Positions 14,264 to 35,991 are shown, counted from the first letter of the stretch. The stretch: DNA of 64,000 nt from an uncultured Planctomycetaceae bacterium (GCA_964401835.1 CAYNZP010000006.1:34020-98019), one strand, 5' to 3'. Made by a program: numbers and translations. The notes: generated from the sequence alone by a model not told the origin.

Positions 14264-14401
14264 GGATGCATAGTAATACAGAGCAGCAAAATTGCAAACA
14301 CGGCTCTGGCAAAGACTCGTCCCAAAAGCCGATAACCGCTGTTGCTATTCACATCTATCGAGGATAATCTTTATTGAGCCCCTGACAGGTCTTCCCGTGG
14401 T

Positions 14402-14650
14402 CGCGACGCTTGATTTTTTGGTCGCAGACAAGGAACGAGAAGGATAAGATGCCGAAGCATCATTGACTTTCGAGTGACGATGTATGCGGCCAAAAGGGCA
14501 TGCGTCCCTTCGCGTTGCAGCAAAAATCGGCGTCTACATTGTTGCGGCTCCTCACCATACCATCAAGGTATGGTGTCGTCGCCGACGCCTTGTATCCACT
14601 CGATTTTTGTTGCAACGCGGCTCACGCGAAGTCCTGTCAGGGGCTCTTGA
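14402..14650 (+). repeat. conserved ~250-nt intergenic element, copy A (putative structured RNA / 5'-leader element); its paralogue lies at 25589-25841
   Basis: ~80% nucleotide identity to copy B over ~250 nt. Contains a perfect hairpin CACCATACC-ATCAA-GGTATGGTG. The differences between copies are compensatory, as detailed in the findings. Confidence 0.6.
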
Positions 14651-14688
14651 GCACTGCATAACAGACACGGATGTAAGGAGAAGTTGAA

Positions 14689-25557: not shown

Positions 25558-25588
25558 TTTTGAACCCCTAACAAAAACCTCCCGCGGA

Positions 25589-25841
25589 CGCGACGCCTGA
25601 TTTTTTGCTCGCAGACAAGGAGCGAGGAGGATACGATGCTTGTGGCATCATTGACGACGAGCGACGCCGTATGCGGACAAAAGGGCGGCGTCCCGAAGGG
25701 TTTTGCCGAAAATCGGCGTCTGCGGTGTTGCGGCTTCTCGCCATACCATCAAGGTATGGCATCGTCGCCGACGCCTTGCAGCCATCCGATTTCGGGCAAA
25801 ACGCGGCTAGCGCGAGATTTTTGTTTGGGGCTCTTGAAAAA
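25589..25841 (+). repeat. conserved ~250-nt intergenic element, copy B (paralogue of 14402-14650); it ends 4 nt before the kdsB ATG
   Basis: Aligns with copy A end to end and has the same hairpin (GCCATACC-ATCAA-GGTATGGC). The ORF-track N-terminal extension of kdsB (25605-25841) runs through it. That extension is considered non-coding because nucleotides, not amino acids, are conserved between copies. Confidence 0.6.
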
Positions 25842-30189: not shown

Positions 30190-31185
30190 TTATTGGGAAG
30201 GCTTTTTTGCTTTTCTCGCCAGTGGGTGCGTCTCGTCGTAAATTTCCTTGAGGCGGCTGGTGGACAGGTGCGTATAAATCTGTGTTGTAGAAAGGCTTTC
30301 GTGGCCGAGCATCTCCTGGAGGCTTCTGAGGTCGACTCCGGCATTGAGCATGTGGGTTGCAAAACTATGACGCAGCGCATGGGGGCTGATGTGGATGGGA
30401 ATGCCGGCAATCATCAAATATTTATCTAGCATCCTGCGAACGGACCTGTCCGAGAGTCGCTGTGATGATTTGTTAATGAACAGCGGTCCCCTCTTGGTCG
30501 AGCCCAGAATCCCCCGCCGCTTTTCAAGATAAGCCTCAATGGCTTCAACCGCCTTGTTACCAAGCGGAACAATACGCTCCTTTTTGCCCTTGCCGCGAAT
30601 CCTCAAGGCTTCTGCAAATTCGTCAAGATCCTCGATATTAAGCGATACGAGTTCACTGATTCGCAACCCTGCCGAATAAATCGTCTCCAGTATCGCCTTG
30701 TCACGAGCACCCAGAATTGTCGCGGTATCGGGAGCCTCCAACAATGCTGCTACCTGGTCAACATCCAGGCACTTCGGCAGGCGTTTATCCTGGCGAGGGC
30801 TCCGAATCGCACTGGCAGGCGATGCCTGCAGAAATTCGACACGAACCAGGAATTTGTAAAAACTCCGCAAGGTTGCAAGTTTCCTGGCGATTGTAGCCTT
30901 GGAATAATTACTGTTCCGCATTATCGCGAGATAGCCGCGAATTTCAGTCGGCGTCACCGCCAGCATCATCTTCTCTACCTTGCTGACGGGAAGTTCCACA
31001 TCGGGAAGATCGCCGGCTGTTACTTCAGAAAGGTCGCCCGGACCTTCTTCCATGATGCCGAAAGACGCGATAAATTGAACAAATTGAGTCAGATCCGCTG
31101 AATACGATTTGACAGTATGCGCGGAAAAGTTCCGTTCGCTTTCGAGGTATTCAAGAAATCTGGAAATAACAGGTAAAATGTGCAT
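30190..31185 (-). CDS. tyrosine site-specific recombinase, XerC/XerD type
   Basis: C-terminal catalytic box HALRHSFATHMLNAGVDLRSLQEMLGHESLSTTQIYTHL (R..H..R..Y). XerC/D-like N-terminal core-binding domain. Confidence 0.85.
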   Translation of the reverse strand: MHILPVISRFLEYLESERNFSAHTVKSYSADLTQFVQFIASFGIMEEGPGDLSEVTAGDLPDVELPVSKVEKMMLAVTPTEIRGYLAIMRNSNYSKATIARKLATLRSFYKFLVRVEFLQASPASAIRSPRQDKRLPKCLDVDQVAALLEAPDTATILGARDKAILETIYSAGLRISELVSLNIEDLDEFAEALRIRGKGKKERIVPLGNKAVEAIEAYLEKRRGILGSTKRGPLFINKSSQRLSDRSVRRMLDKYLMIAGIPIHISPHALRHSFATHMLNAGVDLRSLQEMLGHESLSTTQIYTHLSTSRLKEIYDETHPLARKAKKPSQ

Positions 31186-33122: not shown

Positions 33123-33764
33123 ATGAATAAAATGCCTAAAAACCCTCGACTAATGGAAGTTTTAATTAATAACTTACCAAAACCACCCAAGGGTGTTTAC
33201 TTTAGGTACATAGCTCGGAAGAAACAGCTTTACATAAAAGCTGGCATACACCCTCATATTCTCTTTGCATGCCTACTTTGGGTATGGGTACCTATCTATT
33301 TGTTTCTTATGGTACCCTGTGGGGGCAAGGATCTGCTTTTTAAACTTGTTGATGTTATTGTTAATCCAATAGCCTCATATCTTTCTACCTCATCCCTTGT
33401 TATTATAGATATCATTGTGTCCTTGACGCTGCTTTGTCTATCTGTGGCGATTTTGGGTTTACCACTTATTTTCATCATCCGCTTTTTTCGGGCAAGACTC
33501 TGTATCGCGGATTCAAGTCTAAGTATTTCAGGAATTCGTACCCAACGATGGGATTGGAATAGGAACAGAACGATCCAACTTGTTCGGGCAAATAAGAGAA
33601 GGGGTGGCGCGAAAACTATTGCTCAACCCGAGAACACATCAAGAGAAGAACTCGTGATTAATGTAGGCAAAATGAGAATTAATTCCGACCAACTCGAATG
33701 GATTAATAACGTTTTAGTTGAACTTGCTAAACTGTCGCAGGGCAATACGGGGACGGAGCACTAA
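33123..33764 (+). CDS. hypothetical membrane protein (in the AT-rich island)
   Basis: 3-4 hydrophobic helices. AT-rich codon usage unlike the neighbouring genes. Confidence 0.4.
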   Translation: MNKMPKNPRLMEVLINNLPKPPKGVYFRYIARKKQLYIKAGIHPHILFACLLWVWVPIYLFLMVPCGGKDLLFKLVDVIVNPIASYLSTSSLVIIDIIVSLTLLCLSVAILGLPLIFIIRFFRARLCIADSSLSISGIRTQRWDWNRNRTIQLVRANKRRGGAKTIAQPENTSREELVINVGKMRINSDQLEWINNVLVELAKLSQGNTGTEH

Positions 33765-34420
33765 TAAGGGAACATCCCAACGCACTAAAACCCGCCACGA
33801 AACAGAATAACCAAGAAAGCAATTTAAGCAGCATTTCAAATAACCAAAAGGGCAGCTGACTTCTATAAAAGCTTGGCTGCCTTTCCATAGCTCGAATATT
33901 TTGCAAAAATTCTAGGTTTTCGCGCCCTTCGACCTCGCAGGGCAGATCTTTGACAATTGAATATGGGTTAAAATCCGGTACATAGTAGCCCGTGGCCGGT
34001 AGTCAGTAGTCTGGCCGACGTGACAGCGTGGATGAAAGCGGCGGGTGGCATGGCTAGCTTGCAAGCCATGTTCTCGATTCAGGCAACACGCCTTGCGAGC
34101 AAGACGTGCCACACAAAAATCCCAAAAATTTCGGCATAGCGTGCCAACCCGGCGGTGTTTTTCAACGTCGATTGATAGAGCACAGCGTTTAAATGCGGTG
34201 TTAAAAATTTCGAAAAATTCTTCTCATGGCCCGGCCGGGGTTTAGATGCACTGCCGAATTTTTACGTTACCGCTTTGCGCGCGAAGTGGGGGTTTGGGCA
34301 GGTATATATGGAAGGACTATCTTTCCCGAAAAACTTCAGCATTTTTCGTTTTTTGACAATTAAATAGGCGATTTTGAACTCAAGTCCATCAACAGCCACG
34401 GCTTAAGCCATTTAAAAACT

Positions 34421-34520
34421 GGGCAGTTTTGGGCAGAATCGGGCACATTTGGGCAGAACTGGGCAGAACTGGGCAGTATTGGGTAGATTTGGGCAGAATT
34501 GGGCAGTTTCGGGCAGCTTT
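34421..34520 (+). repeat. 10 tandem copies of a 10-bp unit GGGCAGNNNY (perfect 10-bp phasing)
   Basis: Read directly: gggcagtttt gggcagaatc gggcacattt gggcagaact gggcagaact gggcagtatt gggtagattt gggcagaatt gggcagtttc gggcagcttt. Confidence 0.9.
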
Positions 34521-34584
34521 CGGCAAAGAGGCAGCTCGGTTTCGCTGGAGGCTAGGCCGTGGCCAGGGTTCAAAATACAAAAAA

Positions 34585-35991
34585 CTAAATAACCTCAGCC
34601 AGCGTCGTTTTGCCGAGAGATTCACGGGCCAGGCCCTCTACTCGTGATATCCGTTGCGATATCTGCAAATCGAAATTTTCGACAGATAGATCCTTTTCGA
34701 CCGTGCTGATTTCCATCAGTTCCAGCAGCGATATCTTCTCAGCCGGGCGGGCAAGGACGTATGCCTCCTGCAGGTCCGATTCCACTGGATAGACAATTCC
34801 GATGGCCCGCAGTCGTGTCATAATCTTCCCGACCGACGATTCAGGCAAATCAAGCGCGGCAGCTATTTGCTCCATGCTCACCGGCCCGCTACCCTGGCTG
34901 TATGGCTGGGCGACAGCGAAAGCTGCTCCGAGCAACCGGGAATAACTGACTGGCTCTCCCTCTTCGACTGCGTGAATATTCATCCCGGATAAACTTATTG
35001 CGGCATGGGCAAGCTCCGCACCAAAAAGGAATATCAGCCATGAGAGGTTCAGATACAGTAAAAATATTGGAAGCAGGCCCAACGCTCCATACAGGCTGTT
35101 CTTGCCGACCTCGCTGACATAAAGCCCGAACCCCCACCGCGCGACCAGCCAAAGTGGAAGCGCCACAATCGCACCGCCGGCTGCAGCGCGAAATGGTACG
35201 CGAGTGTTTGGCATCAGAGAGTAAATCGCCGCAAGCAAAATCAATCCGATAATCACAGGCCCGATCCATATGGCTGCGGAAACTATCCAGGATACTCCGT
35301 CGTTATCCTCTATCCCGCCCATTATCTGCTTGCCAGCGTAAATCGCACCAGCCATCGCCACCGGTACCAGTGTCAAAACGGACCAATAGACCAAAATCCT
35401 CCGCACAAGAGACCTGCTGCGTGGAGCGGCAAAAATCCGGTTAAGCGACCTTTCTATTGTGGTCAACAAGGTAAGCGCCGTCCAAATCAACAAGACAACG
35501 CCGATGGGACCGATTTTTCCAAGAGTGAGTTTTCGCTCGATCTTCTTTACGAGTTTTTCAATGTGGCCGGATACGGTTATCACATCATTTTCTCTGCGGC
35601 GTCTCCTTGGCCTTTGAGTTTCCTGCTCACCCAGCTGGGATGTTGAAGCATCTTTAAAAGATTCTCTTGCAGGTCGCTTTTCGGTCACGATCTGTATCTG
35701 CGAAAAGCCAACTCCCTCCAGAATATCGCTGAGACGTATATCGCTTTTTTCCACAACACCTACAGATTTCAGCACAAGCAGCGATAGCACAAGAACAGGA
35801 ATCATCGCAAAAAGTGTTCTGAACGAAAGCGCCGCGCTCATCGCCATGGCGTTATGCTCATGAAGCCGCCGGCCACAGAGTCGCCAGAGTTGGATATTAA
35901 TCTTTACAAGCTTTGCCCATCGGCCTAACTCGTCTCCTGGTGCGGTAAGAAGTGTTCTTATACGTTGGCGGAGCTTGCTGATTATTTTCAT
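34585..35991 (-). CDS. YihY/BrkB (virulence factor BrkB / RNase BN-like) family membrane protein with a C-terminal extension
   Basis: Six TM helices with the YihY signature (MSAALSFRTLFAMIPVLVL ... NLSWLIFLFGAELAHA). Confidence 0.75.
   Translation of the reverse strand: MKIISKLRQRIRTLLTAPGDELGRWAKLVKINIQLWRLCGRRLHEHNAMAMSAALSFRTLFAMIPVLVLSLLVLKSVGVVEKSDIRLSDILEGVGFSQIQIVTEKRPARESFKDASTSQLGEQETQRPRRRRRENDVITVSGHIEKLVKKIERKLTLGKIGPIGVVLLIWTALTLLTTIERSLNRIFAAPRSRSLVRRILVYWSVLTLVPVAMAGAIYAGKQIMGGIEDNDGVSWIVSAAIWIGPVIIGLILLAAIYSLMPNTRVPFRAAAGGAIVALPLWLVARWGFGLYVSEVGKNSLYGALGLLPIFLLYLNLSWLIFLFGAELAHAAISLSGMNIHAVEEGEPVSYSRLLGAAFAVAQPYSQGSGPVSMEQIAAALDLPESSVGKIMTRLRAIGIVYPVESDLQEAYVLARPAEKISLLELMEISTVEKDLSVENFDLQISQRISRVEGLARESLGKTTLAEVI

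Follow-up and report, generated by a model that had tools for sequence, protein, structure and literature searches.

The bcr1 repeat of the Bacillus cereus group is a mobile element of about 155 bp that is flanked by direct repeats of 5 bp and is transcribed (PMC3184786). Its cruciform-like fold is built of two stem-loops and preserved by compensatory changes; single copies become less stable (PMC3184786). Long RNA hairpins that are processed or that alter mRNA stability are known from the Correia/NEMIS elements of Neisseria and the ERIC/IRU elements of enterobacteria (PMC3184786). Planctomycetes are among the bacteria for which REP families have been described (PMC3733652).

The element described here was present in two copies, A and B, in the window, i.e. 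the whole stretch of 64,000 nt that was analysed and to which unprefixed coordinates refer. It is best explained, with fair probability, as a small non-autonomous MITE-like mobile element in the manner of bcr1, with a three-way-junction fold, and not as a regulatory switch shared by its neighbours. It is apparently a new and undescribed member of the structured MITE-like intergenic repeats. The hosts are Planctomycetota, probably Phycisphaerae-like organisms; the homologues of the EF-P protein were named Planctomycetota or Phycisphaerae, the nearest being 79% identical.

Copies A and B were aligned by blastn (78.2% identity over 280 aligned nt, E 2e-57) and by MAFFT. The duplication at about 80% identity noted in the first-pass annotation was thereby borne out. 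The flanks of the two copies could not be aligned, and the similarity ended at the element ends. Copy A extends from 14376 to 14646 on the plus strand (271 nt, GAGCCCC to GGGGCTC; covariance-model match of 304 bits), and copy B from 25562 to 25833 on the plus strand (272 nt; 288 bits), where it fills the efp-kdsB spacer. The coordinates first assigned (14402-14650 and 25589-25841) delimited sequence that is indeed duplicated, but the element is longer: the sequence gained at the 5' side makes up one of the two arms of a terminal inverted repeat. The unit is thus about 271 bp in size with terminal inverted repeats beginning GAGCC. In A these read GAGCCCCTGACAGG...CCTGTCAGGGGCTC and match perfectly (14/14 nt); in B they read GAACCCCTAACAAAAACC and TTTTTGTTTGGGGCTC, with compensated changes relative to A, and imperfect equivalents of A's repeats were found in B, C, D and L009 (the further copies are introduced below). 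Both copies lie directly 5' of a gene start, as had been noted before: A ends 42 nt before the ATG of a response-regulator gene (14689), and B starts 4 nt past the efp stop codon and ends 8 nt short of the kdsB ATG (25842). A third copy was detected neither by nhmmer nor by the covariance model in the 64-kb window.

Further copies were identified by protein and nucleotide searches. A full HMMER search with the 93-codon pseudo-ORF of copy B returned five deposited "proteins" that are translations of other copies (P0133-P0137). Two of them led to copy C (L057:9950-10221, minus strand, on scaffold_383), located 16 nt upstream of the pheT start, and to copy D (L059:9918-10188, minus strand, on scaffold_88), located between dxr and rseP, 16 nt from the stop codon of the former and 18 nt from the start codon of the latter. 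The other three, P0133-P0135, differ from one another in their flanks; they stand for a third subfamily, of which only these spurious ORFs are known. Copies A and B both reside on scaffold_221, and C and D on other scaffolds from the same metagenome sample; from the shared sample and the similar GC content (0.50-0.51) we infer that scaffolds 221, 383 and 88 belong to one genome. A scan of the metagenome collection with the 19-mer CCATACCATCAAGGTATGG of the hairpin tip yielded three true relatives (L009, L013 and L018) and seven chance matches. Each of the three relatives occupies a different locus, all on GC-rich contigs; L009 is complete, and L013 and L018 are cut by contig ends. The same 19-mer scan of the genome collection gave three chance matches only. 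Nothing was found in a protein search with the L009 pseudo-ORF, nothing related in viral contigs searched with three patterns, and no match in the plasmid collection by blastn with A and with L009. Likewise, no further copy was present in about 17 kb past both window ends or in the relatives' loci of 18-20 kb.

In total, at least seven sequenced copies at unrelated loci and three loci seen only as spurious ORFs were obtained. Copies B, C and D are 90-92% identical among themselves and 79-80% identical to A; L009, L013 and L018 share 93-96% identity, and the window type and the L009 type 58-63%. Identities of 90-96% within lineages versus 58-63% between them form a pattern of lineage-specific amplification. 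The apparent copy number is low, with two copies over some 81 kb of contiguous sequence, which speaks against a MITE.

Among the chance matches to the hairpin tip, three AT-rich contigs (L010:1283-1314, L012:679-710 and L017:190-224) have a conserved region in common that contains the hairpin GAATGCCATACCATCAAGGTATGGCATTC. The 19-nt core of this hairpin is that of the element tip, and the rest of the sequence is unrelated; the hairpin is probably convergent or a chance product.

Every full copy was predicted to fold into the same three-way junction, consisting of a closing stem of about 28 pairs and two long imperfect hairpins of about 100 nt (hairpin 1) and 103 nt (hairpin 2). Between the hairpins lies a 7-nt junction, in which a 3-bp mini-hairpin is possible in most copies. 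In copy A, the 5' arm of the closing stem (helix 1; 14376-14404, plus strand) pairs with the 3' arm (14617-14646, plus strand), the outer 14 nt perfectly, and the two arms form the terminal inverted repeat. Hairpin 1 of A (helices 2 and 3; 14405-14506, plus strand) carries a conserved CAAGG, tandem G.A loops (CGAG/CGAG) and CAAAAG, and hairpin 2 (helices 4-6; 14514-14616, plus strand) has its tip CCATACC-ATCAA-GGTATGG at 14555-14573. In copy B, all on the plus strand, the 5' arm (25562-25591) pairs with the 3' arm (25803-25833) with compensated changes relative to A, and hairpins 1 and 2 span 25592-25692 and 25700-25802, the latter with the conserved tip at 25741-25759. The hairpin-2 tip was identical in six of the seven aligned copies; the loop of copy C reads ATTAAA.

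The predicted RNA structures had energies of -120 to -150 kcal/mol. Compared with shuffled controls, folding z scores were -12.9 and -11.0 for the plus and minus strands of A, -4.9 and -6.7 for those of B, and -10.4 for the plus strand of L009; A folded as single-stranded DNA scored -10.0. The plus strand folded better than its complement by 7-11 kcal/mol in A, C and D, and the minus strand was slightly better in B and L009. This strand bias in A, C and D hints at selection at the RNA level. Each copy contained 9-13 G.U pairs versus 1-5 A.C mismatches, an excess of G.U that follows in part from having predicted the structure on the plus strand; together, these counts and the folding energies would suggestively favour the plus strand in A, C and D.

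The junction mini-hairpin reads CCCTTCGGG in the L009 type (L009:1164-1172) and is the exact inverse, CCCGAAGGG, in B, C and D (25693-25699 in B). Such an exact loop inversion points to template switching at the DNA level. In copy A, the mini-hairpin of the junction (14507-14513) has decayed to CCCTTCGCG. The motifs GACGC/GCGTC occur five times in A (14405-14409, 14478-14481, 14502-14506, 14531-14535 and 14582-14586), so that alternative pairings are possible; the recurrent motifs could be either a conformational switch or merely repeated palindromic building blocks.

Base pairing was evaluated in a MAFFT alignment of seven sequences. Over a consensus of 106 pairs, 92.6% of the cells formed standard pairs, and 37 of the 106 pairs showed double changes, compared with 17.3±2.8 in column shuffles (none of 500 shuffles reached 37). 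When the partners were slid by 1-3 columns as a control, only 4-8 pairs had double changes. The covariation included the closing stem, with double changes in 14 of the 28 pairs of helix 1, and an earlier alignment of three sequences had given the same picture. Many of the double changes were transversions (G-C to C-G, A-U to C-G), for which no G.U intermediate is possible. The compensatory stem changes between A and B that the first-pass annotation had described were confirmed and extended to all helices. One of its examples, the change from A-U to G-C at the base of the CCAUACC-AUCAA-GGUAUGG hairpin, was recovered in columns 191/212. In the other, the helix GACGAUG/CAUGCGUC, the compensation is real, but this local helix competes with a better-supported long-range pairing of GACGC (14405-14409) with GCGTC (14502-14506).

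The covariation differed with the age of the comparison. Consensus pairs were formed to 96-97% in each of A, C and D (97% in A), to 91% in B and to 88% in L009. Between subfamilies, stem differences were compensated in 12-13 cases (A versus B, C or D) and in 32 cases (A versus L009). Among close copies, lost pairs outnumbered compensated ones: 10 versus 1 for B and C, 13 versus 2 for B and D, 5 versus 2 for C and D, and 6 versus 0 for L009 and L013. Pair-breaking differences of this kind would be unexpected were each copy a selected regulatory RNA. Since recent copies differ mostly by broken pairs and subfamilies by compensated ones, the fold appears to have been selected in the propagating lineage and not at each locus. 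At the same time, the terminal repeats were the most variable part and the internal hairpin tip the most conserved, which counts against a MITE: variable ends with a conserved internal tip are the reverse of what is seen in a classical transposase-bound MITE and more like a functional RNA or a single strand recognised by its hairpin.

The insertion sites were compared with orthologous loci of relatives. A distant relative (L019, GCA_964427875.1) is syntenic at site A, with pheA and priA on one strand and the response-regulator gene, an M16 peptidase gene and, further on, an RDD protein gene on the other; the response regulators are 76% and the RDD proteins 30% identical. The priA-response regulator spacer comprises 425 nt in the window and 155 nt after removal of the element and one TT, compared with 154 nt in L019. 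In the alignment of this element-free spacer with that of L019, blocks on either side are conserved, and TTGAG occurs once where the element is inserted. At site B, efp is directly followed by kdsB in L036 and L037 (EF-P 78% identical), where a spacer of 84 nt without the element was found; the spacer of the window (284 nt) consists of the element and only 12 further nt. These empty-site comparisons rest on distant relatives, and no strain-level polymorphism was seen. A promoter-like motif, TTGCTATTC-N13-GGATAATCT (14342-14370, plus strand), is conserved with L019:3760-3790, and copy A follows immediately downstream. Its form common to the window and L019 is TTGCTATTC-N13-GGATARTCT, located upstream of the response-regulator operon; judged from the sequence, it is a putative promoter.

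Short direct repeats were present at the flanks. The TT left of A (14374-14375) recurs at 14647-14648, as part of TTGAG at 14374-14378 and 14647-14651; the TT left of B (25560-25561) recurs at 25834-25835, as part of TTGAA at 25560-25564 and 25834-25838. In element orientation, the left and right flanking triplets are ATT/TTG for A, TTT/TTG for B, TAA/TGA for C, TTT/TTT for D and TTA/TTA for L009; for L013 and L018 only the right triplet, TTA, is available. Target-site duplications are thus not clean, which weighs against the MITE reading: matches were found at 11 of 15 triplet positions, a non-significant number when the T-rich flanks are allowed for (p about 0.1). A duplication of 5 bp (TTGAG, TTGAA) was considered and discarded, as it fits A and B and fails for C, D and L009. 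The preference for T/A-rich targets is clear, and it would explain why copies are located beside stop codons and in short spacers ahead of start codons.

In the window organism, all four copies are in sense orientation relative to the downstream gene, whose start follows 8-42 nt after the end of the copy. In the other lineage, all three copies are antisense to the adjacent gene: L009 lies antisense within an operon of a serC-like gene and serA, and convergent arrangements with nadE and an ftsI-like PBP gene are seen for L013 and L018. A uniform orientation within each lineage would arise by chance in about 1 of 32 cases. The neighbouring genes, i.e. the response-regulator gene, kdsB, pheT, rseP, serA, nadE and the ftsI-like PBP gene, are functionally unrelated.

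These results bear differently on the proposals made at first sight. A small structured repeat family had been suggested, and this is supported by at least seven sequenced copies at unrelated loci and by strong covariation. That kdsB and signalling genes receive a common regulatory input had also been considered conceivable; this is not supported, in view of the unrelated neighbours, the antisense copies, the empty orthologous sites and the pair-breaking changes. A shared orientation 5' of genes, which was to be looked for in other copies, applies to the four copies of the window organism and not to the three antisense ones. The additional copies were dispersed at unrelated loci, and none was found inside a gene. 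Regarding copies in random orientation inside genes or with target-site duplications, which had been named as signs of a MITE-like repeat, the observations largely agree: orientation varies, orthologous sites are empty and the copies are flanked by short direct repeats, with no copy inside a gene. Taken as a cis-regulatory RNA, the element keeps no fixed orientation beside related genes, is absent from the response-regulator site of L019 and the kdsB sites of L036 and L037, and has lost 5-13 pairs as against 1-2 compensated ones among B, C and D. Taken as a MITE, it agrees in size (up to about 400 bp), in being non-coding, and in its terminal inverted repeats, dispersed copies and empty sites.

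Known families and coding potential were examined as well. Against Rfam 15, no match of the window was obtained at gathering thresholds, and at permissive thresholds A and L009 gave only chance-level matches (E>2). The window contains no tRNA or tmRNA genes. No promoter-like site was detected within A or B in the scan, and no terminator-like site is conserved, the sole one in A (tip of hairpin 1) not being kept in other copies. No insertion sequence with matching ends was seen within the window or the fetched loci. All six reading frames lacked codon-position periodicity, and non-synonymous differences far exceeded synonymous ones; the element is therefore non-coding, in agreement with the initial view that the constraint is not on protein.

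Independent genes for small RNAs or small proteins, duplicated as a family within the genome, are hardly credible on this evidence. Every copy accommodates ORFs of 50-93 codons, and some of these have been entered by gene callers as proteins (P0133-P0137), but frame, start and length of the ORFs vary between copies, periodicity is missing and non-synonymous changes dominate in all six frames. Neither an internal promoter-like site nor a conserved terminator-like site was detected in A and B, and the 4 and 8 nt that B leaves to the flanking genes give no room for signals of its own. A palindromic repeat acting purely at the DNA level, with no role as RNA and with compensated stem differences that stem from hairpin-templated mutation (template switching in quasi-palindromes) or from HUH/Y1-type recognition of folded single-stranded DNA, is rather improbable. 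It would account for the folding of both strands far beyond shuffled sequences (z = -10 as single-stranded DNA), for the inverse mini-hairpins CCCTTCGGG (L009 type) and CCCGAAGGG (B, C, D), which are typical of template switching, for the many transversions barred from a G.U intermediate, for an internal hairpin as the best-conserved part, as in hairpin-recognised elements, and for assemblies breaking at the element. Unlike IS200/IS605-type elements, however, the element has genuine inverted repeats at its termini and short direct repeats at its flanks; no Y1 or RAYT gene was found at any of the loci, and template switching alone leaves unexplained why old subfamilies are 88-97% paired while young copies are mismatched.

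Unlikely, too, is a cis-acting RNA module that has spread by mobility and has since been domesticated, the copies now functioning in leaders or between cistrons under host selection, e.g. as an RNase III/RNase E processing site, an mRNA stabiliser or a protein platform. The four copies of the window organism would suit such a role by their sense orientation 8-42 nt upstream of a start codon, and A would be transcribed because it lies just after the conserved promoter-like motif. The strand bias also fits, with the plus strand folding better in A, C and D and the minus strand of L009, which is the one read by the flanking operon, slightly better; the plus strand is, however, not favoured in B and L009. 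The G.U pairs (9-13 versus 1-5 A.C per copy) point the same way, but their excess stems partly from predicting the structure on the plus strand. Conserved unpaired elements (CAAGG, the CGAG/CGAG tandem G.A and CAAAAG, and the AUCAA loop in all copies but C) and the 96-97% of pairs kept in A, C and D would be expected of a functional RNA. Against this stand neighbour genes without a common function, orthologous sites of relatives without the element, mostly pair-breaking differences among B, C and D, and the absence of an Rfam match. A related reading is fairly unlikely, though it retains some weight: the fold itself could be the unit of an undescribed kind of mobile element, in which folded RNA or single-stranded DNA is recognised at the CCAUACC-AUCAA-GGUAUGG hairpin and not by a transposase at the terminal repeats, or else the element could have been taken over by the host to serve, just upstream of start codons, as an intercistronic RNA module with a specific orientation. 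It is kept alive by the near-invariant internal hairpin with variable ends and by the uniform orientation within each lineage.

According to the preferred reading of a MITE-like mobile element, insertion would take place into short T/A-rich intergenic spacers beside stop and start codons, and from its position an inserted copy would be carried passively in the neighbouring transcript. Copy A would thus be part of the 5' leader of the response-regulator operon, and copy B would form the efp-kdsB intercistronic spacer. Only well-folded copies would spread, and inserted copies would then decay. The structure would be needed for mobility, or for the element to be tolerated, and not for a task common to the neighbour genes; effects on these genes would presumably be side effects of a very stable RNA, such as processing, stabilisation or uncoupling of cistrons.

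Several observations concern assembly and annotation. Independent assemblies break inside or at the element, namely L007, L008 and L022 from the same strain and L013, L018 and L054 from the other lineage; the Logan contig L022, for example, runs from position 234 of A to a point about 80 nt inside B. Such breaks are typical of repeats or strong hairpins and are a practical cause of fragmented MAGs. The kdsB gene has been extended by gene callers 39 codons into copy B, giving a product of 283 aa instead of 244 aa (25725-25841; L021:15699-16550). Spurious proteins of 109-160 aa derived from element copies have been deposited (P0133-P0137).

A second repeat family was noticed, with a length of about 330 nt and 10-12 head-to-tail copies of the 10-nt unit TGGGCAGNNN, which corresponds to one helical turn. 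In the window it occupies 34208-34525 (array 34410-34535), between an ORF without Pfam match (33123-33764) and a BrkB/Rrf2-like gene (34585-35991, minus strand), and it is 81% identical to L057:10310-10636, about 85 nt from copy C. The array could be a phased binding array for a protein. A tyrosine recombinase gene (30190-31185, minus strand; Phage_integrase with a SAM-like N-terminal domain, XerC/D-like) is located 4.4 kb downstream of B; no connection of this gene with the element was noticed.

By a standard pipeline, the covariation would be taken for the sign of a novel cis-regulatory RNA ahead of kdsB and the response-regulator gene. Recognition of a mobile-repeat origin guards against over-calling riboswitch-like motifs from paralogues within one genome, and it would explain the assembly breaks, the mis-annotated N-terminus of KdsB (39 residues) and the spurious proteins in public databases. 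The contrast between compensated changes among subfamilies and broken pairs among recent copies provides a simple test to distinguish selection for propagation from selection for host function. Furthermore, a structured repeat family is hereby documented in the poorly sampled Planctomycetota.

The element was finally compared with described mobile elements. IS200/IS605-type elements and their derivatives are not known to have either terminal inverted repeats or flanking direct repeats; they carry subterminal hairpins at the two ends and insert 3' of a fixed tetra- or pentanucleotide. Descent from them was rejected on account of the true inverted-repeat ends; the left flanks vary (TT, TT, AA, TT, TA), and TTGAR is present only in A and B. 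REP and REPIN sequences, which are mobilised by RAYT proteins, resemble the element in being palindromic and intergenic with a preserved hairpin, and REPs are recognised as folded single-stranded DNA. They differ from it in their units of 20-40 nt (about 100 nt in REPINs), a GTAG or CGTC tag and a usually high copy number near a RAYT gene; an identity with REP/REPIN was rejected, since the element is a composite of 271 nt, far larger than a REP unit, and is bounded by terminal inverted repeats, and a RAYT gene was not seen. As a possible parent we consider the IS5 family (IS1031/IS427 type), to which we ascribe GAG ends and T/A-rich duplications of 2-4 bp (TNA/TTA). L009 (TTA/GAG...CTC/TTA), D (TTT/TTT) and C (TAA/TGA) would fit this type, whereas A and B have no clean 3-bp duplication, and a transposase gene with such ends was found at none of the loci.

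Correia and ERIC elements share with the present one the terminal inverted repeats, the lack of a transposase gene, insertion in intergenic regions or at operon junctions, and presumably co-transcription with the neighbours. They are, however, single hairpins of 100-160 bp that are flanked by duplications of TA or of a sequence containing TA and that number from tens to hundreds in a genome, whereas the element described here forms a three-way junction, has ends that are more variable than its internal hairpin, and occurs at low copy density. With bcr1 the differences concern size and host (about 155 bp in Firmicutes versus 271 bp in Planctomycetota), the direct repeats, which are consistently 5 bp in bcr1 and short and inconsistent here, and transcription, which is demonstrated for bcr1 and deduced from position here; the likeness is one of description, and a relationship in sequence is not expected. 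In this sense bcr1 is the closest analogue: both are small non-coding intergenic repeats with short direct repeats and an uneven distribution among relatives, and both combine a closing stem and two stem-loops with compensatory upkeep of the fold and decay of individual copies.
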